The position numbers and the translations under genes were made by a program. The notes beneath the pieces were generated by a model. It was not told the DNA's origin. It saw only the letters and a list, made by a program, of their open reading frames with translations, and did no database searches. Below, in pieces: positions 2,411-51,052 of a stretch of DNA of 56,589 bases. Source of the stretch: a virus. Taxonomy: Duplodnaviria; Caudoviricetes. The DNA is taken from positions 1 through 56,589 of IMG/VR virus record IMGVR_UViG_3300049893_000970; one strand, given 5' to 3'. Numbering within the stretch: the stretch's first letter is position 1; every line of letters begins with the position of its first letter.

Positions 2411-2685
2411 ACGTTCACCTCTCGGAACCTCTCGAATCCGAGAGGTATGACGGTTCACCTCTCGCTACCTCTCGCATTCGCAGAGGTACGCCGAGGTACC
2501 TCGCGCACGACGGAGGTACCTCTTCGAACCTCGGCGAATCGGAGAGGTTCGCGTAGGTACCTCGCACCACCTCTCGACTTCCGCGAGGTACGCCGAGGTA
2601 CCTCCCGAACGTCGGTGGGTACCTCTCGCTACCTCTCGAAAGTCGGGAGGTTCGCCGAGGTATGACGAGCCTGGCCGAGGTACGC
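2411..2685. repeat. Helically phased ACCTC/GAGGT repeat array (candidate pac/TerS-binding site)
   Basis: 12 ACCTC and 10 perfect plus 2 near GAGGT copies on a ~10.2-bp lattice. Confidence 0.85.
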
Positions 2686-4341
2686 GCGGAGATCGACGCC
2701 GCCCTGCTGCGCCGCGAGACGGGCGAGCAGCTAGCGGAGGAGGCTGCTCGGCTGGCCGGGAACTTCCGTGAGTTCATCTACGCCGCGTGGCCGTCGCTCG
2801 GGTACCGCCCGCTCGTCCCGTCCTGGCACATCGACGCGCTCGCCGATCACTACCAGGCTGCCATCGACCGCTGGCTGACGCGGCTCATCATCACGATCCC
2901 TCCTGGCTACCTGAAGTCCACGATCTTCAGCGTGCTCGGCCCGGCGTGGGCGTGGACGCACCGGCCGTCGGAGCAGATCGTGAGCGCATCCCACTCCGAC
3001 GACCTCGCCACGCGCGACACGCGCCGCTCGCGCGCGGTGATGCAGACCGCGTGGTATCAGGCGCGGTGGGGGTCGCTGTGGACGTTCTCCGGCGACGAGA
3101 ACCTCAAGACGCGCTACTCGAACGACCAGGGCGGGCATCGCGTCAGGACGCACGTGGGCGGCGGCACGGGCGACCGCGGCTCGATCCTGCAACTCGACGA
3201 CCCGCACAACGCGCAGGAGGCGCACTCGGAGGTGCAGATGCAGGCCGCGCTCGACTGGTGGGGCGAGACGTGGGCGTCGCGCCTCGACGACTCGGTCGGC
3301 GATCTCGGCGTGAAGATGGTCATCGGGCAGCGCATCTCCGAGAAGGATCTGATCGGCCACCTGCTCTCGAACGACGAGGACGCCGGGCGCTGGACGCACC
3401 TGTGCCTGCCTGTGCGCTACGAGCGGAAGCACCCGTTCGTCTACCCGGCGAAGCGCGTCGTCGGTGGACGCACGCTGAAGGGCGATCCGCGCAAGCGCGA
3501 CGGCGAACTGCTCGCGCCCGAGTACATGGACGAGGAGCGGCTCGCCGACCGCACGGCGGAGATAAGCGAGCACACCATCGCCGCGCAGTACCAGCAGCGG
3601 CCCGCCCCGCGCGAGGGGCTGATGCTGCGACGTGCGAACTGGCGCTACTACGACCCGGACCTGAGCTACTACGCGCCGCGCGGGTCGTTCGGACCGGCGC
3701 AGGTGCTGGAGCTTGCCTCGCGCATCGGAGCGTTCCACCTGATCGTCCACTCCTGGGACACGTCGGTGAAGGACCGCGCGCACTCCGACTTCGTGAGCGG
3801 GCAGACGTGGGGCTGCGTCCGTGCGCATCGCTACCTGCTGCGGCTGGTGCATGAGCGCATGGCGCTGAACGCGACCATCGAGGCGATGGTGAACCTCGCG
3901 CAGTGGGCGGCTCCGCTGTGGCCCGGCTGCCCGCACTACACGGTGATCGAGAACTCGGCGAACGGCCCGGACGCAGCAGCGGAGATCCGCTCGCGCGTGC
4001 AGGGCGTGACCCTCAGCGACGCGAAGGGGTCGAAGGAGGTTCGCGCCGACACCGCCTCGCCCGCGCTCGACGGCTTCAACTGCTTCCTGCCGGGGTACGC
4101 GAGGGCGGACGGCTCCAGCTACGACGAGCGCACGCCAGCGGCAGTGCAGCGCTTCGTGGAGGAACTCAGCGTGTTCAACGGCGGGCAGCACGATGACCAG
4201 GTGGACGCCTGGTCGAGCATGGTGATCTGGACGCGCGACCGGACCGGCAGCGTGACGATGAGCGTGCCGAGCGGGCGCGCGGAGTCACCGCGCTTCCGTA
4301 CGTCGGAGCAGTCCACGGCGCTCAGGCCGTCGCTGCGATGA
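2662..4341 (+). CDS. terL: Terminase large subunit
   Basis: IPPGYLKST (Walker A-like), LQLDDPH (Walker B), YQQRP, SWDT and HDDQVDA nuclease motifs. Confidence 0.95.
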   Translation: MTSLAEVRAEIDAALLRRETGEQLAEEAARLAGNFREFIYAAWPSLGYRPLVPSWHIDALADHYQAAIDRWLTRLIITIPPGYLKSTIFSVLGPAWAWTHRPSEQIVSASHSDDLATRDTRRSRAVMQTAWYQARWGSLWTFSGDENLKTRYSNDQGGHRVRTHVGGGTGDRGSILQLDDPHNAQEAHSEVQMQAALDWWGETWASRLDDSVGDLGVKMVIGQRISEKDLIGHLLSNDEDAGRWTHLCLPVRYERKHPFVYPAKRVVGGRTLKGDPRKRDGELLAPEYMDEERLADRTAEISEHTIAAQYQQRPAPREGLMLRRANWRYYDPDLSYYAPRGSFGPAQVLELASRIGAFHLIVHSWDTSVKDRAHSDFVSGQTWGCVRAHRYLLRLVHERMALNATIEAMVNLAQWAAPLWPGCPHYTVIENSANGPDAAAEIRSRVQGVTLSDAKGSKEVRADTASPALDGFNCFLPGYARADGSSYDERTPAAVQRFVEELSVFNGGQHDDQVDAWSSMVIWTRDRTGSVTMSVPSGRAESPRFRTSEQSTALRPSLR

Positions 4342-4783: not shown

Positions 4784-5467
4784 GTGATCGCGGTCATCGT
4801 CCCGGCGCTCGGACGCCCGGAGCGCGTGGCACCCCTGCGGGCTTCGCTGGACGCGGCTGCGACGGTCCCGACGACACTGCTCTACGTCATCAGCCCAGAC
4901 GACGACGCGACGAGGGACGCGTGTGACGCCGCTGGCGTGGCGCACGCCACGACTCCGTTCCCGCTCGCAGGCGGCGACTACGCGAGGAAGATCAACCTGG
5001 GCATCGACCTCACCCGCGACGCGTGGATATTCCAGGCGGGCGACGACATCAAGTTCCACCGCGGGTGGGACACGACCGCACTGGCCGTGGCCGAGCGCTC
5101 CGACGCGGCTGGCGTGATCGGGACGAACGACCTCGGAAACCCGCTGGTGAAGTCCGGCCGCCACTCGACGCACTCGCTCATCTCGCGGGAGTACGTGGAG
5201 GTCTGGGGCACCATCGACGAGCCGGGCAAGGCGCTGCACGAGGGCTACTGGCACTGCTGGGTGGACAACGAACTGATCGAGACCGCGAAGTCGCGCGGCG
5301 CGTACTTCGCCGCCCGCCGATCCATCGTCGAGCACATGCACTGGGTCTGGCACAAGGGCGCGAAGGACGCCACGTACCAGCGCGGGCAGGAGCGCTACCA
5401 CGAGGACCACCTGCTGTTCATGCAGCGCAGAGCCTTGTGGCGTGGTGGCAGAGTGGTATCGTCTTGA
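4784..5467 (+). CDS. GT2-like glycosyltransferase
   Basis: IAVIVPALGRP start, AGDD (DxD-like), DNE and VEHMH motifs. Confidence 0.85.
   Translation: MIAVIVPALGRPERVAPLRASLDAAATVPTTLLYVISPDDDATRDACDAAGVAHATTPFPLAGGDYARKINLGIDLTRDAWIFQAGDDIKFHRGWDTTALAVAERSDAAGVIGTNDLGNPLVKSGRHSTHSLISREYVEVWGTIDEPGKALHEGYWHCWVDNELIETAKSRGAYFAARRSIVEHMHWVWHKGAKDATYQRGQERYHEDHLLFMQRRALWRGGRVVSS
5435..5462 (+). promoter_or_regulatory. Putative promoter TTGTGG-N16-TATCGT for a near-leaderless Arc-like gene
   Basis: AGTGG precedes the -10 as in the other copies; ATG is 8 nt downstream. Confidence 0.45.
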
Positions 5468-5470
5468 CAC

Positions 5471-5707
5471 ATGCCTGGCTTCACGCTCCGGCTTACCGAC
5501 GAGCAGCACGCCGCGCTCACCGCTGACGCGAAGCGGAACAGTCGCTCGCTCCAGGGCGAGGTCATCCATCGGCTGTTCCCTCCAGCAGACACCCCGGAGA
5601 GCGTGGCTGAGAAGCTGCAGGCAGCCCGGTCTGTGCTCGACGCCGCAGAGCGGCACTTCCGCCCGGACCCGAAGCCGCAGAAGGTCGAGAAACCGAGGCG
5701 TCGGTGA
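5471..5707 (+). CDS. Arc-like ribbon-helix-helix DNA-binding protein
   Basis: FTLRLTDEQHAALTADAKRNSRSLQGEVIHRL matches the Arc family pattern. Confidence 0.85.
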   Translation: MPGFTLRLTDEQHAALTADAKRNSRSLQGEVIHRLFPPADTPESVAEKLQAARSVLDAAERHFRPDPKPQKVEKPRRR

Positions 5708-5988
5708 GCGCGTCCGAGAAGCCGAAGGTAACGCCCTGGGTCGAGCCGGAGCTTCTGAATGGATGGACGACTCCGGAGGGCTTCCAGCCGCCTCGCTATC
5801 GGCTCGCCTACGACGGAGAGGCACTCGACCTCTCCGGGATCGCCGAGCCAGGAGATGCGGGCCTTCCGATCTTTCGACTTCCTCCGGACCTCTCCAGGTT
5901 CTTCGGGGTCGAGGCCCCGGGGTGGTTCGGCGGAAGCTTCGCCATCGACGAGGAGGGCTATGTCTACGTGAAGGCGCTGCCGTCGTGA
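5704..5988 (+). CDS. Hypothetical protein
   Basis: Overlaps its neighbours at both ends (GTGA coupling at the 3' end). Confidence 0.6.
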   Translation: MSASEKPKVTPWVEPELLNGWTTPEGFQPPRYRLAYDGEALDLSGIAEPGDAGLPIFRLPPDLSRFFGVEAPGWFGGSFAIDEEGYVYVKALPS

Positions 5989-6506
5989 GGACGCTGCTCA
6001 TCGCTCCACACGCCGACGACGAGACGCTGTTCGCCAGCTTCCTCGCGCAGCGCCATGCCGCCCACATCCACGTCGTCTACGACGAGGGGCGCGAGGACGA
6101 ACTGCGGGCGGCGACCGCGTGGCTCGGCTGCACCTGCTCGCAGGGCAACGTCCCGAAGGGGGCGAGCGAGGACGTGGTCGAGGCGGCGCTGATCGGGCTG
6201 CGCGACCCGAGCGGCGCGGACGACTGGGACCTGGTGATCGCTCCGTCTGAGGACGTCGCCGGACACGAGGAGCACAACATCGTGGCGCGGCGTGCCTGGG
6301 AGACGTTCGGCGACCTGGAGATCATTCAGTACCGGACCTATGCCCCGCGAGGCTCGCGCTCGGTCGGCGTGCCCCTGGAGCCGGACCGCCCCTCGTTCAT
6401 CGCGCGCAAGCTCGCCGCGCTCTCCTGCTACCGCTCGCAGATCGAGGACCCGGCGACCCGGCCCTGGTTCTACGATCTGCTCGACCTCAGGGAGTGGATC
6501 GCATGA
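5985..6506 (+). CDS. PIG-L/LmbE-family N-deacetylase
   Basis: APHADDE, GHEEH and KLAALSCYRSQ motifs; GTG start at 5985. Confidence 0.9.
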   Translation: MRTLLIAPHADDETLFASFLAQRHAAHIHVVYDEGREDELRAATAWLGCTCSQGNVPKGASEDVVEAALIGLRDPSGADDWDLVIAPSEDVAGHEEHNIVARRAWETFGDLEIIQYRTYAPRGSRSVGVPLEPDRPSFIARKLAALSCYRSQIEDPATRPWFYDLLDLREWIA

Positions 6507-6955
6507 AGGTTCTCGCAGCAGCATTCGGCACCGCCGCGCTCGCCGTGAGCGGCTTCCTCGTGGCCGACCGGGCAGGCGTGGTCTCGCTCACCGGGAGCAC
6601 CGCGACGACCGTGTCCGTCCCGGCTCCGCAGAACCTGCGCGTGGTCGAGGCCGGGGAGACGACCGTGAAGGTGAGCTACGGCCCGAGCGTGGTCGGCCCG
6701 CTCCGCATCGCCCCGTTCGACAACGGCAAGGGCGCGAAGATCACGTGGGCGGGATCGACGGACGCGCTCTACCCGCTCGGCATCACCTACATGGCGAGCA
6801 AGAACGGGAAGGACCTGTGGGCGGCGAACAAGGCGCAGACGTACGCGAACGTCGGCTTCACGCTGGCGGTGCGGAAGTTCACGACATGCGTGGTGCCGCA
6901 CTCAACCTCAGGCTTCGGACCCAAGCGGTGCGTGACCTGGACGGCACCGCCGTGA
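6503..6955 (+). CDS. Secreted beta-rich (fibronectin type III-like) protein
   Basis: Signal-like N-terminus; PAPQNLRVV...TTVKVSY. Confidence 0.55.
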   Translation: MKVLAAAFGTAALAVSGFLVADRAGVVSLTGSTATTVSVPAPQNLRVVEAGETTVKVSYGPSVVGPLRIAPFDNGKGAKITWAGSTDALYPLGITYMASKNGKDLWAANKAQTYANVGFTLAVRKFTTCVVPHSTSGFGPKRCVTWTAPP

Positions 6956-7061
6956 GCCTCGGAGGCGGTCGCTGGTTCCTCTGGATCGGCCGCACGGGCT
7001 TCGGCTTCCGCGTGCGCTGGATCGAGTTCCAGTTCTACTGGTACGGCGTGAAGGGTCGGCG

Positions 7062-7616
7062 ATGACGCTCCACGAGTTGGAGCGCGAGTCGATCCGCGCC
7101 TTCGTCCGCTCGGCAGCAGACGAGGGCTACCTCTCCGGGCGCGTGCTCGACTACGGCTGCGGGAAGCAGCCCTACCGACCCATCGTCGAGGCGGCGGCTG
7201 GCGAGTACATCGGCTTCGACAGTGCCAGCTTCCCCGGCTCCGTCGTGTCCGAGGAGATCGGCCCGGAGGAGGACCGCGTGCTGTACCCGTTCGAGGAGTA
7301 CGACGCGATTCTCTGCACGCAGGTCGTCCAGTACCTCCCGCTCGCCCGCAACTCGGGCTACACGCACCACTGGCCGCTGATCCTGTGGGAGTGGAAGGCC
7401 TCGCTCGCTATCGACGGGCTGCTCGTGATGACATACCCGACGAACTGGCCCGAGGTCGAACCCGAGGACCTCCACCGCTTCACGAAGGCGGGCATGGCGC
7501 GGCTGCTGACCGAAGCAGGCTTCACCATCGTGCGCCATGAGGTGCGCGGATATCACGACACCAAGTTGAGTTACGCCAGCCTGGCGCTGGGCTACGGGGT
7601 GGTGGCCCGGGCATGA
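7062..7616 (+). CDS. Class I SAM-dependent methyltransferase
   Basis: VLDYGCGKQPY, YDAILCTQV, DLHRFT. Confidence 0.9.
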   Translation: MTLHELERESIRAFVRSAADEGYLSGRVLDYGCGKQPYRPIVEAAAGEYIGFDSASFPGSVVSEEIGPEEDRVLYPFEEYDAILCTQVVQYLPLARNSGYTHHWPLILWEWKASLAIDGLLVMTYPTNWPEVEPEDLHRFTKAGMARLLTEAGFTIVRHEVRGYHDTKLSYASLALGYGVVARA

Positions 7617-8101
7617 CCGTCGTCATCGACGTGGGCTGCGCGCGGCACGGCGGCGACTACTCCATCGAGCGGCTCATCGAGGAATACGACCCGCATGAGT
7701 TGTACGGCTTCGACCCGACCCTCGATGTCTCGACGTGGCCGACACCGATGCCTGACCGCCCAGTGATGTGCCTGCGAACAGTCGCCGCCTGGACCTACGA
7801 CGGCGAGGTCGGCTTCCGCGCGGATGGCCTCAACTCTTGGGTCACAGAACTGCGAGGCGCTCCGAAGGTGCCGTGCGTGGACCTCGCCCGCGTGGTGCGC
7901 GAGGTGGCGATACCCGACCACCTCGACGTGATCCTCAAGCTCGACGCCGAGGGCAGCGAGTACGACCTGCTCCGGCACCTGATGGCGACCGAGACGGACA
8001 GGCTTCTGACGCTCGCCGTGGTCGAGTGGCACGAGCCGGACCGAGGCCGCGCGCTGATCGAGGAGCAGTTCGCCGCGCCGATCAAGGAGTGGCCGTACTG
8101 A
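7613..8101 (+). CDS. FkbM-like methyltransferase
   Basis: IDVGCA, LKLDAEGSEYDLL, VEWH. Confidence 0.85.
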   Translation: MTVVIDVGCARHGGDYSIERLIEEYDPHELYGFDPTLDVSTWPTPMPDRPVMCLRTVAAWTYDGEVGFRADGLNSWVTELRGAPKVPCVDLARVVREVAIPDHLDVILKLDAEGSEYDLLRHLMATETDRLLTLAVVEWHEPDRGRALIEEQFAAPIKEWPY

Positions 8102-8694
8102 ACGTCGCGGCGATCATCGTCACGCGCGGAGACCAGGACCTCGCCATCCGCGAGCGCATCCTGCCGTCGCTGCCCGAGGAGTGGGAGTGGCACGTGTGGG
8201 ACAACGAGGTCGAGGAGGACCTCGCCGTGTACGGGCGCTACGCCGCCATCCAGTGGACGGACGCCGAGTTGATCTACGTCCAGGACGACGACTGCGTGGT
8301 GAGCGATCCGAGGGCCATCGTGGACGCGTGGCGCGAGTGGCATGGGCGCGGCATCCCGAACGGCCACGTCGTCTGCAACATGCCGCAGGAGTTCCGGCAC
8401 GACTTCTACGAGGACCACGCGCTCGTCGGCTTCGGAGCAGCGTTCCACCGGGACGCGCCGCAGCGGGCGTTCGCTCGCTTCTTCGGCTCCGACACGGGCA
8501 ACCTGATCACGCGCGACCTCCAGCACTACTACCGCTGCTGCGACGTGGTGTTCACCGGCCTCACGCCGCGCGTGCTCGTCGACGTGCCATACGAGAACCT
8601 CCCGCACGCGTTCTATGAGACGCGGATGTGGAAGCAGCCCGAGCACCAGGCCGAGCGCGCGCGGATGCTGGACCTGGTCAGGCAACTCGCGTGA
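8098..8694 (+). CDS. GT-A fold glycosyltransferase-like protein (CTG 8098 or GTG 8089 start)
   Basis: IYVQDDDC DxD motif; NVAAIIVTRG N-terminal strand. Confidence 0.7.
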   Translation: MNVAAIIVTRGDQDLAIRERILPSLPEEWEWHVWDNEVEEDLAVYGRYAAIQWTDAELIYVQDDDCVVSDPRAIVDAWREWHGRGIPNGHVVCNMPQEFRHDFYEDHALVGFGAAFHRDAPQRAFARFFGSDTGNLITRDLQHYYRCCDVVFTGLTPRVLVDVPYENLPHAFYETRMWKQPEHQAERARMLDLVRQLA

Positions 8695-8912
8695 CCGCAG
8701 AGATCGACTACGTGGGCGTACGCGAGTTCGTGGCGCTGATCCTCGCGCAGCGGTGGGAGCCGCGCGGCGCGAACGAGTACATCCGCCTGTCGATGATGCC
8801 GGGACTGTTGCCGCCCCTTCCCGCCGGGATCCTGCTCGACAGGACGTACGGGTTCGACCCCGACGGGATGATGGATGTGCGGCTCAAGCGGCTGCGTGGC
8901 TGGCGGCTGTGA
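8691..8912 (+). CDS. Hypothetical protein
   Basis: GTGA-coupled at both ends. Confidence 0.55.
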   Translation: MTAEIDYVGVREFVALILAQRWEPRGANEYIRLSMMPGLLPPLPAGILLDRTYGFDPDGMMDVRLKRLRGWRL

Positions 8913-9664
8913 ACGTCGAGATCATCTTCACCGCCTGGAACCGGCTCGCCTTCACCGAGGCGAGCTTCCGGCTGCTCGGCGAGAACACCGATTGGGAGCG
9001 GGTGGACAGGCTGGTCGTCTACGACGATGGCTCCGAGGACGGCACGCGCGAGTTCCTGGAGGTCGCTGGCGCTGACGTGGGCGTGCCGGGATACGAGATC
9101 CGGGACGGCGGCTGGCGCTCGCTCGGCGCGACGATGAACGACGCCATCGCGCTCACCGAGGCGGACGCGATCATCAAGATCGACAACGACATCGCGCTGC
9201 CTCCGGGCTGGCTGGAACGCCTGCTCGCCGTGGCCGAGCGCCACCCGAAGTACGCCCTGATCGGCATGGAGGCGGGCTGGACCGGGAGCTACGTGGGTCT
9301 GCGCCGACCGCGCGAGTACGCGATCACGAAGGCTCGGCACATCGGCGGCATCGGCCTCATGCGCGTACGCGCCTTCGAGACGCGCCGTCCGCTGCCGCTC
9401 TCGCTCGGCAAGAACGGCCGGGCCGGATTTACGATCTGGCAGCACCGCTACCACGTCCCGGCGGGATGGGTGACACCCGATCTGCCGGTGGTGCAGTTCG
9501 ACCGCATCCCGGTCGAGCCGTGGGCCAGCCTCTCGCATCACTACGTCGAGGCGGGGTGGGCGCGCCCGTGGCCGCCGTACGAGCACGACATGGCTCCGTG
9601 GTGGGACTGGATCCCGAGCGAGGTGCAGCAGCAGGCAGAGCACGCGGTGAAGGCGCTGGCATGA
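8909..9664 (+). CDS. GT2 glycosyltransferase
   Basis: TAWNRL, VYDDGSEDGT, KIDND. Confidence 0.9.
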   Translation: MNVEIIFTAWNRLAFTEASFRLLGENTDWERVDRLVVYDDGSEDGTREFLEVAGADVGVPGYEIRDGGWRSLGATMNDAIALTEADAIIKIDNDIALPPGWLERLLAVAERHPKYALIGMEAGWTGSYVGLRRPREYAITKARHIGGIGLMRVRAFETRRPLPLSLGKNGRAGFTIWQHRYHVPAGWVTPDLPVVQFDRIPVEPWASLSHHYVEAGWARPWPPYEHDMAPWWDWIPSEVQQQAEHAVKALA

Positions 9665-10398
9665 AGGTCGTGGCCTCGGCCATCGTGCGCAACGAGGCTG
9701 GCCGCTACCTCGACCTCTGGCTCGACCACCTGCTCGCGTTCTGCGACGAGGTCCGGTTGCTCGATGACGGCTCGACCGACGACACCTGGGAGATCGCATC
9801 GCGCGAGGGCGTGGCGATCACGGCGAACGAGGGTCCGGCGTTCTTCGAGTACGAGTCCGAGGCGCGGAACGCACTCCTGCGCTGGACGATGGAGGGCCAG
9901 CCCGACTACGTCCTCGCCATCGACGCCGACGAGTTCATCGGCGACACCGAGGAGCTTCGCAAGGCGGTGCTCGACGGCCACCCGGTCTACTCGCTCACCA
10001 TGCGCGAGGCGTGGAAGGTGGACGGCACCCGACTCGGCCTGCGCATCGACGGACTGTGGGGCGACCGCCGCTGCCCGATCCTCTGGCAGGCACCACGCGC
10101 GTTGCGCGGTAGCCGCTGGCAGATCCCACGCCGGAAGCTTGCGTGCGGGCGCGAGCCGATAGCAGTGCGCGGGCAGCGCGGCGTGCAGACGGGCATCGGC
10201 ATCTACCACTTCGGCTGGACGCGGGAGCGCGAGCGCGTCGCCCGAGCCGAGCGCTATTTCGAGCACGACCGTGGGCGCTTCCACGCCGATAAGCACCTCC
10301 AGTCCATCCTCTGGACGGACGAGCAGGTGAAGCTCCGGTGGGTGCGCTGGCCGACTTCGATCCCGGCGGCGGTCGGTGGACGAGCGACGGATTCCTGA
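9661..10398 (+). CDS. GT2 glycosyltransferase
   Basis: IVRNEA, LDDGSTDDT, IDADE, HFG. Confidence 0.9.
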   Translation: MKVVASAIVRNEAGRYLDLWLDHLLAFCDEVRLLDDGSTDDTWEIASREGVAITANEGPAFFEYESEARNALLRWTMEGQPDYVLAIDADEFIGDTEELRKAVLDGHPVYSLTMREAWKVDGTRLGLRIDGLWGDRRCPILWQAPRALRGSRWQIPRRKLACGREPIAVRGQRGVQTGIGIYHFGWTRERERVARAERYFEHDRGRFHADKHLQSILWTDEQVKLRWVRWPTSIPAAVGGRATDS

Positions 10399-44207: not shown

Positions 44208-44972
44208 ATGTCAGTTCACGTGATGAGTTGGGTCCTCCAGCACTCGGAGGAGACGCTCGGTCGCAGGCTTGTCCTGCTCTGCCTCGCTGACCGAGCGAAC
44301 GACGACGGGACGGACGCATGGCCGAGCGTGGAGACGCTCGCACGCGATGCACGTATGTCGCGTCGGCAGGTGCAGCGAAGCCTCCGCGACCTAGAGACAA
44401 GCGGCGCGATCACGCAGTCGGGCACGAGCCGGAAGGGGACGCACATCTACAGCGTCAATATGACGCCCCCTAGGGGCGACATCCACGACGCCGCGGGGGC
44501 GACATTTGCGCCTGAGGGGGGCGACATCCTGCCGCCCGAACCGTCCTTAGTGCAACCACCCATAGAACCATCCGAAGGTCTTGCGCCGCTGGCGCGCGAG
44601 TACGACCCGCTCAAGGGCGAGAAGATCGACGGGCGCAACCTGCCGTGGGACGAACTCGTCCGGGTCACGAACGCGGACGAGCGCCTGGAGAAGGGCAAGA
44701 TCGCCCGGGCGCTGAAGGTCATCCGCGCGGTCGTGGTCGCAGACCATCACGCTCGCACCTTCGTTGACCCCGCCCACGGCGAGGCGTTCATCGCTCGGGA
44801 GATACGCTCGCGCGGCGCTCACTACCGGCGTCGCTGGCCGACCATCGAACTCACGCCGACCGCGCTCGCTGCGAACTGGAGCCGGGTCGTGACCGACCAA
44901 CCCGGCCAGGACCTCGCCGGGACCCTGGACGCCGCGCAGCGCGGCATCGACGCAGCGAGGAGGACCGCATGA
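44208..44972 (+). CDS. HTH replication initiator-like protein
   Basis: LVLLCLADRAN..G..AWPSVETLARDARMSRRQVQRSLRDLE. Confidence 0.85.
   Translation: MSVHVMSWVLQHSEETLGRRLVLLCLADRANDDGTDAWPSVETLARDARMSRRQVQRSLRDLETSGAITQSGTSRKGTHIYSVNMTPPRGDIHDAAGATFAPEGGDILPPEPSLVQPPIEPSEGLAPLAREYDPLKGEKIDGRNLPWDELVRVTNADERLEKGKIARALKVIRAVVVADHHARTFVDPAHGEAFIAREIRSRGAHYRRRWPTIELTPTALAANWSRVVTDQPGQDLAGTLDAAQRGIDAARRTA
44453..44527. repeat. Iteron-like repeats (candidate origin)
   Basis: GGGGCGACAT at 44473, 44496 and 44518, plus an inverted near-copy at 44460. Confidence 0.65.
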
Positions 44973-45820: not shown

Positions 45821-46375
45821 ATGGACATGAGCGCTGCTCTGCGGCTCTACAACCCGGAGGACCTGGGAGTAGACGGATACCCGAGCGCATGGCACCCCGA
45901 CTCCTGGCAGGACAATCTGCGCTGCGATCCCGTGAAGGACATCGTGCGCGAGATCGCGGGTCACCGCTGCGAGCGATGCAACCACCCGTACCTCACGCGC
46001 CGCCGCGAGCCGCGCATCTCGCAGGGAGGGCAGTGGTCACCCTGCGACATGCTGTGCGCGCACGGAGGGCCGACGCGCCGACGCGCTGGAGGCGAGAACG
46101 AAGCACAGTGGCGCATCCTCACCGTCCATCACCTGAACGGCGTCAAGTGGGACTGCCGCTGGTGGAATCTTGCCGCGCTCTGCCAGCGGTGCCACCTGGC
46201 GATCCAGGCGAAGGTGCTCATGGAGCGCGTCTGCCCGCTGGAGCACTCGGAGTGGTTCAAGCCGCACGCCGCGGGCTGGTACGCGGCGGCCTACCTGGGC
46301 GAGGACCTGACCCGCCGCGAGACGCTCGCACGCTTGGACGAGTTGCTCGCACTGGAGCGAGTGGAAGGAGCGTGA
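45821..46375 (+). CDS. HNH-like nuclease
   Basis: CERC, LTVHHLNG...NLAALCQRCH. Confidence 0.8.
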   Translation: MDMSAALRLYNPEDLGVDGYPSAWHPDSWQDNLRCDPVKDIVREIAGHRCERCNHPYLTRRREPRISQGGQWSPCDMLCAHGGPTRRRAGGENEAQWRILTVHHLNGVKWDCRWWNLAALCQRCHLAIQAKVLMERVCPLEHSEWFKPHAAGWYAAAYLGEDLTRRETLARLDELLALERVEGA

Positions 46376-49442: not shown

Positions 49443-49775
49443 GTGCGCGACCCGGAGCTACTTCGCACGCTGCACGTTCTCTGGCGCGGCGAGTGCGTGC
49501 TGGAGACCATCAGCGACTGCTACCGGCAGCGCTACTCGCTCCACCACATCCACCGGCATCCGCGCGATGACGTTCGCGGCAACCTGGTCATGCTCTGCGG
49601 CGACGGTGTGCAGGGGCACCACGGCCAGATCACCGCGGAGTCCTCGACTGCGAAGGCCGCGCTCGGTCAATACATCCTCGCCCACCGTCTCGACACGCTT
49701 CGGTACCTCGCTGACAAGCTCGGCGACGAGCAGGCGCGCGCGTGGCTCCGCGCGCGGCTATACGCTCCGGTCTGA
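49443..49775 (+). CDS. HNH-like protein
   Basis: SLHHI...DD..GNLVMLCG..GHHG. Confidence 0.65.
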   Translation: MRDPELLRTLHVLWRGECVLETISDCYRQRYSLHHIHRHPRDDVRGNLVMLCGDGVQGHHGQITAESSTAKAALGQYILAHRLDTLRYLADKLGDEQARAWLRARLYAPV

Positions 49776-51052
49776 TGCCGACCCGAGCGAAGGTCTGGAA
49801 CGGGAACGACTCGCTGCGACGGCTGCTCGTCCGCACCGAGGACCTGCACGCACACCCGAGCAACCCGCGGCGTGGGAACGTCGAGGTCATCCAGCGCTCG
49901 CTCGAACGCTTCGGCCAGCAGCGCCCGCTGCTCGCGCTGCCGGACGGCACCATCGTCGCCGGGAACCACACCTACCGGGCCGCCGTGGAGTCGGGCTGGA
50001 CGCACATCGCGGTCGTGCGCTCGGACCTCACCGACGCGGAGGTGGACGCCTACCTCGTCGCGGACAACCGCACCAGCGACCTCGGCGTGTACGACGACAC
50101 GCAACTCGCGGCGCTGCTCAAGAGGCAGTACGACGACGACACGCTGCTCGGGACCGGCTACGAGCGCGACGACGTGGAGGAGCTACTCACGCGGTTGGCG
50201 TGGGACGGACTCGGCCCGCGCGAAGGAGCGGACGACCCTGCGCCCGAGCCTCCGGAGGAGCCTCGCTCCGAGCGGGGCGTCGTGTACGAACTCGGATCGC
50301 ACCGGCTGATGTGCGGAGACTCCTGCGACCCCGACGACGTGGCAACGCTGCTCGACGGCGCGACGCCGATTCTCATGCTCACCGATCCTCCGTACGGGAT
50401 CGAACTCGATATGGAGTGGCGCGACCGCGCGGGCCACAACGAACTGAACCCGGCGGAGCCGTCGTACATGCAGCGGATGGACGGGCTCCACAACACGACC
50501 ATCTCCGGCGACACGCGCGCGGACTGGAGCGAGGCGTTCGCGCTCGTCCCATCGCTGAAGATCGCGTACGTGTGGCATGCCTCCCATCACGCCTGCGAGG
50601 TGAAGGCGGGACTGGAGCGGATCGGCTTCGTCGTCGCGCAGACGATCATTTGGGACAAGACCCGCTTCGCCATGTCGCGCTCGCACTACCACTGGCAGCA
50701 CGAGCCGTGCTACTACGCTCGTAAGCAGGGATCGCGGAAGTGGCGTGGCTCGATGAATCAGTCCACGATCTGGAGCGCGCCCTCGCCGAAGATGATCATG
50801 GCGGGCACGACCGAGACGAAGGTCGATCACCCGACGCAGAAGCCAGTGATGGTCTACACGCGGCCCATCGAGAACCACCTGCGCGCGGGCGAGCCGTTCT
50901 ACGAACCGTTCGGAGGCAGCGGCACCGGGTTCATCGCGGCGGAGCAGACCGGGCGCGTGTGCCTGGCGATGGAGATCGACCCGAAGTACGTGGACGTGAT
51001 CCGCCAGCGGTACGCAGCCTTCACGGGCCAGCCCGAGTACGCACCGCAGTAG
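49775..51052 (+). CDS. ParB/Srx-like domain fused to N6-adenine DNA methyltransferase
   Basis: NPRR, IVAGNH, ADNR; TDPPYG, HPTQKP, EPFGGSGT. Confidence 0.92.
   Translation: MPTRAKVWNGNDSLRRLLVRTEDLHAHPSNPRRGNVEVIQRSLERFGQQRPLLALPDGTIVAGNHTYRAAVESGWTHIAVVRSDLTDAEVDAYLVADNRTSDLGVYDDTQLAALLKRQYDDDTLLGTGYERDDVEELLTRLAWDGLGPREGADDPAPEPPEEPRSERGVVYELGSHRLMCGDSCDPDDVATLLDGATPILMLTDPPYGIELDMEWRDRAGHNELNPAEPSYMQRMDGLHNTTISGDTRADWSEAFALVPSLKIAYVWHASHHACEVKAGLERIGFVVAQTIIWDKTRFAMSRSHYHWQHEPCYYARKQGSRKWRGSMNQSTIWSAPSPKMIMAGTTETKVDHPTQKPVMVYTRPIENHLRAGEPFYEPFGGSGTGFIAAEQTGRVCLAMEIDPKYVDVIRQRYAAFTGQPEYAPQ

Follow-up and report, generated by a model that had tools for sequence, protein, structure and literature searches.

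What fills the gap between the two terminase genes of the viral contig IMGVR_UViG_3300049893_000970? The window, by which we mean the whole stretch of DNA analysed, is this IMG/VR contig at its full length (56,589 bp, 68% GC, complete). In it the genes for the small and large terminase subunits, terS and terL, stand 253 bp apart, and the space between them carries a pentamer and its reverse complement in register with the turns of the double helix. We found this intergenic array to be a real, statistically extreme and apparently unique cis-element, related to known kinds of DNA, namely phased protein-binding arrays and packaging-site (pac) regions, with the small terminase TerS as the leading candidate for its binder. 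The three features on which the argument turns are as follows.

1881–2408, + strand: terS, a credible Sf6-type small terminase of 175 amino acids (aa), candidate binder of the array.
2409–2661, no strand: intergenic array of 253 bp, a 10.22-bp dyad lattice with slots 0–23.
2662–4341, + strand: terL, large terminase of 559 aa, matching phrog_38 (E 2.1e-72).

The first-pass annotation had placed the pentamer ACCTC and its reverse complement GAGGT at a series of positions between these genes, and every position is exact. ACCTC starts at 2417, 2427, 2457, 2467, 2498, 2518, 2528, 2559, 2569, 2600, 2621 and 2631 (n = 12), and GAGGT at 2442, 2483, 2493, 2513, 2544, 2585, 2595, 2647, 2657 and 2677 (n = 10). 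The two near-copies, TAGGT at 2554 and TGGGT at 2616, are each one base off. Counted over the whole genome, the density is clearly above background: the 280-bp array holds 22 of these pentamers versus 218 in the entire window, and elsewhere there is a mean of 1.07 per 280-bp window, with a maximum of 5 away from the array.

The phasing of about 10.2 bp that had been claimed for the motifs also holds, as each motif alone has a coherence of 0.97 at 10.2–10.25 bp. Both motifs fall on one dyad lattice with a slope of 10.22 bp, in which the dyad lies at the ACCTC start or at the GAGGT start plus 5; 19 distinct slots lie on one line with residuals of at most 0.7 bp. A slot carries the left half-site, the right half-site, both (GAGGT·ACCTC, the dot marking the dyad here and below) or neither, the motif-free slots being every third or fourth one. 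With both strands counted, the genome has 8 copies of the composite unit ACCTC-N5-ACCTC-N10/11-GAGGT versus 0 in 100 dinucleotide-preserving shuffles, GAGGTACCTC has three occurrences in the genome, all within the array, and outside the array only 4 ACCTC/GAGGT pairs in the whole genome have the lattice spacing. A generic scan for phased 5-mers scored the array at 20.3 and the best of 44 other loci at 9.9; no array like this one was found among those 44 loci.

Above the single turn there is a longer order, set by five units.

U1 2417–2456, U2 2457–2517, U3 2518–2558, U4 2559–2620 and U5 2621–2661: array units, with a super-period of 102 bp.

Tandem Repeats Finder (TRF) reports units of 40 bp and 102 bp, the latter with 2.1 copies that match at 77%, and taken whole the array is a quasi-palindrome. 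Its GC content is 61.7% versus about 70% in the flanking genes, and its A/T dinucleotides recur at 10.25 bp with a power of 2.27, compared with a maximum of 0.56 in 395 other 282-bp windows of the genome.

What has been kept in the array, and what has been free to change? Five aligned 41-bp units contain 16 invariant columns, 15 of which make up three 5-mers, and all 22 oriented sites read ACCTC, with a preceding T in 15 of the 22 and little information outside. Because the 5-mers are invariant while the filler varies, the pattern argues for selection on the motif and against fresh duplication. The filler is not free of pattern either. With motif bases excluded, A/T is found at 22 of 27 filler positions next to the dyad versus 33 of 121 elsewhere (permutation p 0.02), and an A/T stands directly 5' of the dyad in 7 of 7 motif-free intergenic slots. 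These in-phase A/T steps, the motif-free slots included, fit anisotropic bending around a protein, a point on the side of the first-pass interpretation.

The register does not stop at the ends of the intergenic space, as two further slots illustrate.

2392–2401, no strand: lattice slot −2, a near-palindrome GAGCT·ACCTG at the terS 3' end, made from the rare codons CTA-CCT.
2677–2686, no strand: lattice slot 26, GAGGT·ACGCG in terL codons 6–8.

Measured against the 53 predicted genes of this genome that served as codon-usage reference, the codons at 2394–2399 are rare, CTA making up 2.8% of Leu codons and CCT 8.6% of Pro codons, and a relative (contig L032) has CTG CCC at this place. The GTA at 2680, terL codon 7, is the sole GTA of terL, a codon that supplies 2.7% of Val codons; relatives read GAGGCGCTG at slot 26, with Ala-Leu in place of Val-Arg. 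The lattice thus continues into both flanking genes via rare codons, an observation that is post hoc, but its parts agree in direction.

Could the sequence be a gene after all? One frame runs through it.

2405–2665, + strand: open frame, possible bridge open reading frame (ORF), 86 codons, from a GTGA overlap with the terS stop to an ATGA overlap with the terL start.

The first-pass annotation had allowed that this ORF might be a conserved protein whose coding sequence explains the repeats. We found no coding signal and no real homologues, and rejected it as a coding gene. Its GC content by codon position is 0.57/0.62/0.63, as against third-position values of 0.90 and 0.93 in the neighbouring genes, and codon-position GC is flat (0.57–0.63) in every frame of the array. 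The ORF matches no Pfam or PHROG family, is absent from the database gene calls, though terL at 2662 is called there, and drew only 3 spurious matches, to unrelated repeat proteins, among 1.84 billion protein representatives. Nor did the array prove to be a known RNA family, a terminator or a sigma-70 promoter: Rfam 15 returned only 4 matches, to microRNA hairpins (E 0.26–0.74; 20.5–20.9 bits versus gathering scores of 70–268), and no terminator-like or sigma-70-like site was found in the array.

Where, then, did 253 bp of non-coding lattice come from? The comparison set comprised 14 related contigs (L003, L004, L031–L038 and L040–L043; L039 is the same contig as L004). In 12 of the 14 terL begins right at the terS stop or overlaps it, GTGA being the usual form, and alignment with six relatives leaves a clean gap of about 250 bp with both flanks aligned. 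The ancestral terL start, GTGACGACG, is kept at 2405, a second copy, ATGACGAGC, is used at 2662, and a third start copy, ATGACGG, lies at 2447; in the near relatives L031 and L033 the first terL codons already read ACCTC...GAGG. The start copies together with the clean gap mark the array, on the evidence of these alignments, as an expansion peculiar to this lineage, which arose where terS and terL ancestrally overlapped and had the first terL codons as its seed.

TGACGA stands at both ends of the array (2406–2411 and 2663–2668), which over 19 nt show 79% complementarity to each other. The internal flank copy and the repeat structure fit local duplication as well as mobile-element insertion. 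Searches for a second copy, made with a lattice pattern of 20 specified bases, gave these results: 0 matches in IMG/VR beyond this contig, and 3 isolated single palindromic matches in 185,579 species genomes, all in unrelated low-GC taxa and by our own estimate at about chance level. Two related viral records contain no ACCTC-N5-ACCTC anywhere, and blastn found no match in phage and plasmid collections. Since no further copy turned up in the collections searched, a mobile element is unsupported, and a mobile element or host repeat was set aside as the source. An assembly artefact is unlikely too, by reasoning only: the first 127 bases of the contig are identical to its last 127, an exact overlap that points to a circular assembly with an arbitrary start and suggests the assembly k-mer, and the exact internal repeats of the array, at about 20 bp, are far shorter. 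On that circular map a replication origin at the array is also unlikely, with the O-like initiator gene (44208–44972) about 14 kb off.

The terS/terL junction seems to be an insertion hot spot. In 2 of the 14 relatives, the more distant L042 and L043, a small gene and short direct repeats are inserted between terS and terL. The inserted genes (3420–3710 in L042, 940–1300 in L043) look by eye like members of the ribbon-helix-helix (RHH) class, and the direct repeats before them are two copies of GGTATATAC in L042 and two of TGTGGCTACAAA in L043. A CGGCC-rich stretch in L003 is a coding repeat, and a weak A/T periodicity near the terS 5' end in relatives, unnormalised for A/T content, was unconvincing.

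Is the upstream gene truly terS? The protein of this phage itself matches no Pfam or PHROG family. It has 83 homologues, of which 49 were aligned, and 11 of these 49 match PF20901 Sf6_terminase (best E 3.2e-5); the closest, P0002 and P0003, are 81% identical to it, and P0002–P0012 together span 72–81% identity. An AlphaFold2 (AF2) model with a pLDDT of 81.5 carries a helix-turn-helix (HTH) at its N terminus, followed by a long oligomerisation helix, as in the TerS fold. In the VIA-wide comparison its top match is Sf6 TerS (3hef_A; Z 7.1, rmsd 8.3 over 106 residues), the next match has Z 4.7, and other TerS structures (E217, NV1, the SF6 DNA-binding domain and phBC6A51) match at Z 3.2–3.5. Foldseek alone gave nothing significant for the model, and a TerS sequence profile found no match at E ≤0.1 among solved structures in the PDB. 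Because the family has Pfam matches, the model matches Sf6 TerS and the homologues lie directly against terL, we accept ORF 1881–2408 as a credible Sf6-type small terminase on family and model evidence.

The large terminase is plainer. The terL product has an exact match in the protein collection, and in alignments its start coincides with the GTG/ATG starts found in relatives. Those TerL relatives whose genome ends are known are remote, at 27–28% identity, and come from phages of Microbacterium cluster EI. These are reported to package by the headful mechanism and to have circularly permuted genomes of 55–56 kb and 70% GC, in which every gene runs rightward and ParB-like genes adjoin the terminase (PMC7302621). 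The phage studied here has the same general layout, and by analogy with those headful packagers, headful packaging with a pac site would be a reasonable expectation.

How might the array work? We tentatively favour, as a possible reading whose chance we put a little below even, a DNA-level array that is bound by protein on one face and wrapped by a TerS ring, serving as a platform for the initiation of packaging; protein binding, TerS as the binder, wrapping and a packaging start at this place are all things that we infer. The 253-bp spacer would act as DNA and not as a gene. Over about 27 consecutive turns it would offer, every 10.22 bp and on the same side of the helix, either a dyad (GAGGT·ACCTC or half of it) or an A/T step. 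With dyads and A/T steps on one face, the duplex would be expected to bend easily in one direction and a protein could make contact once per turn. The likeliest partner would be the ring-shaped Sf6-type TerS encoded directly upstream. The DNA would wrap one or more TerS rings, and the 102-bp super-period, with its approximately 9 half-sites, would come close to one turn around a ring of 8–9 subunits. With the array wrapped, the concatemer could be tagged for TerL to make the opening cut of a headful series.

The location of the array, filling the gap between the terminase genes, is one in which a pac site is to be sought, and the nearest precedents come from phages whose pac sites or TerS rings are known. 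In SPP1/SF6 the pac region (boxA/B/C, bound by a ring of the TerS protein G1P) likewise has repeats next to or in terS. The SPP1/SF6 TerS is a ring with outward HTH domains that gives regularly spaced DNase I protection, and in a conformational-selection model such rings pick out stretches of about 100 bp that bend readily and that are compared there to nucleosome positioning sequences (PMC4737164). The SPP1 site differs in covering promoters and the terS start, whereas the array fills the terS–terL gap, and in its direct repeats, which form three small sets and did not matter when the isolated domain bound DNA (PMC4737164), compared with the array's 22 half-sites, which are invariant, read in both orientations and cover 27 turns in a 68% GC genome. 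Sf6 gp1 is the other close likeness, being the best structural match of ORF 1881–2408 and belonging to the Pfam family that 11 of the 49 aligned relatives of that ORF's product, though not the product itself, match. The Sf6 TerS is listed as an octamer whose channel, about 19 Å across, is too small to admit a DNA duplex (PMC9611059). We set beside this the wider picture that pac-type mechanisms of DNA recognition by TerS are called "elusive and controversial" in the same 2022 review (PMC9611059).

A bolder form of the wrapping idea would make the array a newly born "terminase nucleosome", in which the first terL codons were amplified into a positioning sequence of 27 turns, phased at 10.22 bp and with a super-period of 102 bp, spooled for about 2.5 turns on Sf6-type TerS rings and serving as the pac site or boosting it. 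Taken with all these parts it is rather doubtful. If true, the artificial DNAs that position nucleosomes strongly would have here an equivalent in nature, made for a viral packaging protein. The Sf6 small terminase has reportedly been described as a "DNA-spooling device", and we know of no phased binding array described for Sf6. Nucleosome-positioning sequences carry A/T or TA steps with a period of about 10 bp. The array resembles them in its in-phase A/T steps at about 10.2 bp in GC-rich DNA, which predict one-way bendability, and differs from them in belonging to a bacterial virus without histones and in consisting of a defined palindrome and not a statistical preference.

Several points weigh against wrapping by TerS as a packaging signal. 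Phased arrays were sought in related phages, and they are found in 0 of the 14 related contigs, at the junction or elsewhere in the stretch examined, so the family packages without one. The packaging-site reading of the first-pass annotation is supported in part, by the real non-coding lattice between a credible TerS gene and TerL; the absence of arrays from relatives speaks against an essential pac role. The use of both half-site orientations would suit a two-fold-symmetric binder, or else a read-out of shape, better than it would suit the DNA-binding domains of a ring, which all point the same way along wrapped DNA. In HK97, the one specific case that has been solved, the TerS:DNA complex threads DNA through its channel with no wrapping (PMC11331095), and the review cited above regards the nucleosome model as unproven (PMC9611059). 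HK97 is a likeness in that TerS recognises a specific site, cos, to start packaging; the difference is that this short site is read on the tunnel exit and needs no phased array, so that wrapping is not universal (PMC11331095).

A further point on this side is that the family has another candidate. A non-coding element at 1844–1874, separated by 6 bp from the start of terS, could be aligned at 10 of 10 loci (the window, L003, L004 and L031–L037) although the TerS proteins are only 40–75% identical. It reads GCGCTA(C/A)(G/C)CT, a few bases, and then an alternating purine–pyrimidine run ending in GCGCGCGA; a −10-like TACGCT lies within it before this run, and the window has a single exact copy. 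This element could be the family pac site, a late promoter or both.

Other explanations have to account for the same lattice, and one of them names a different protein.

5471–5707, + strand: RHH-like small protein, 78 aa, rival candidate binder.

That the array is operator- or centromere-like, with another two-fold-symmetric protein as its binder and this one as the prime candidate, we consider unlikely; a cooperative coat on one face of the DNA would then throttle terL and the late genes or build a partition-type complex. Palindromic GGT·ACC cores, half-sites that read both ways and a spacing of one turn are how RHH dimers use DNA, and short repeats in two orientations at about one-turn spacing are what the array has. 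RHH proteins bind short-repeat arrays of this sort in parC/ParR and in the heptads of omega proteins. The boxes of parH, bound by ParG, are likewise very short, direct and inverted, and spaced by about one turn, and dimers coat them cooperatively with bending or wrapping of the DNA (PMC3130281). All three kinds of array adjoin their own partition or regulator genes, whereas the RHH-like gene here is 2.8 kb downstream. Gene and array are jointly absent from the two related viral records, but these are incomplete records (69% and 76% complete). The assignment itself is uncertain: the protein corresponds to the N-terminal part of phrog_795 (E 9.7e-7), but in Pfam it reaches FitA-like RHH, ParD, TraY and Arc only at sub-threshold levels (E 4e-4 to 0.02), and a single-sequence AF2 model shows no ribbon. 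No ACCTC/GAGGT pair at lattice spacing lies in the region upstream of its gene, and our family scans, which covered 32 of the 55 predicted genes, turned up no partition ATPase. The genes at the L042 and L043 junctions, RHH-like by eye and accompanied by short direct repeats at the very place of the array, would strengthen the case, but their proteins have no Pfam match and no significant similarity to the RHH-like protein. One viral homologue of the latter in IMG/VR (34% identity) sits behind a different repeat.

That the array works in translation is very unlikely: here the frame from GTGA to ATGA would carry ribosomes across, and GAGGU/ACCUC hairpins would set the TerS:TerL ratio. GAGGU is presumably Shine-Dalgarno-like and ACCUC anti-Shine-Dalgarno-like, the RNA folds strongly (−164.6 kcal/mol, z −8.4), and relatives couple terS and terL directly by overlap, a coupling that the bridge frame, with its overlap motifs at both ends, may preserve. 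The frame (2405–2662) is the only open one of six, but with a chance probability of 0.083 this is not significant, and openness may simply explain why the insertion was tolerated, not its helical register. The hairpins show no more covariation than shuffles do (308/500), and their interior pairs hold in 10 of 15 cells; Rfam matches are all sub-threshold, and the array has no terminator-like site. Nor is it clear why an RNA should hold to a register of 10.22 nt, to A/T steps in phase or to two-fold symmetry through 27 turns, since nothing at the RNA level calls for them. The array may lastly have no function at all, as a local expansion through serial direct and inverted duplication seeded by the terL 5' end, or as an insertion resembling a miniature inverted-repeat transposable element (MITE), that has not yet been purged; this we hold to be quite unlikely. 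It would account for the array's presence in one contig only, for the TRF unit of 102 bp, for the TGACGA flanks, the third ATGACG at 2447, the complementary ends and the GTGACGACG retained at 2405, and it agrees with a junction that accepts insertions in L042 and L043; moreover, periodicity comes automatically with any tandem repeat whose units measure 10/11 bp. Yet copies that had drifted to about 77% identity should have lost their 5-mers, and 22 sites are perfect with 2 one base off. The motif-free slots, too, retain A/T at the lattice point, the lattice reaches both genes through rare codons, and a mobile element is unsupported by the copies counted in IMG/VR, species genomes, phages and plasmids.

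Two observations concern the RHH-like gene and its homologue. The locus L048 has at 77–115 a 16-bp direct repeat, CTRGCCAAAGGTCTAG, in two copies 23 bp apart and about 150 bp upstream of the match to the RHH homologue, and this repeat is probably the homologue's operator. An ORF at 5704–5988 (94 aa) shares its first 4 bp with the end of the RHH-like gene in an arrangement like that of an antitoxin and its toxin, and it matches no family.

To return to TerS as the binder, the literature searched, a limited collection, contained no account of a terS–terL gap that holds a helically phased array. Known pac DNAs bind TerS weakly and without clear sequence preference. If the array is a substrate of TerS, it would rank as a natural substrate of unusual strength and regularity, on which the wrapping model could be tested directly, and it would be a packaging signal born de novo out of coding sequence where two genes meet. 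With another binder, too, the array would be a clean natural case of sites placed on one face once per turn, over about 27 turns, in a GC-rich genome.

The P1 pac site consists of clusters of a repeated hexamer, lies inside the pacA gene and is cut under the control of Dam methylation. The array shares with it the many copies of a very short motif. Of the 13 GGTACC sites in the genome, 5 lie within the array, and given these sites and the methyltransferase genes of the phage, methylation of the array is conceivable. A ParB-like domain is fused to a DNA methyltransferase at 49742–51052, and a second methyltransferase (N6/N4) spans the contig junction (56xxx–967), the contig start falling within this DNA methylase gene; on the circular map both are a few kb upstream of terS.

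The predicted genes are 55 in number and nearly all on the + strand. HNH endonuclease-like genes lie at 45821–46375 and 49443–49775. Downstream of terL, a block at 4784–10398 separates it from the remaining structural genes and contains glycosyltransferase-like genes (4784–5467, 8615–9664 and 9466–10398) as well as small genes with no family label; Microbacterium cluster EI phages have similar insertions between terminase and portal (PMC7302621).

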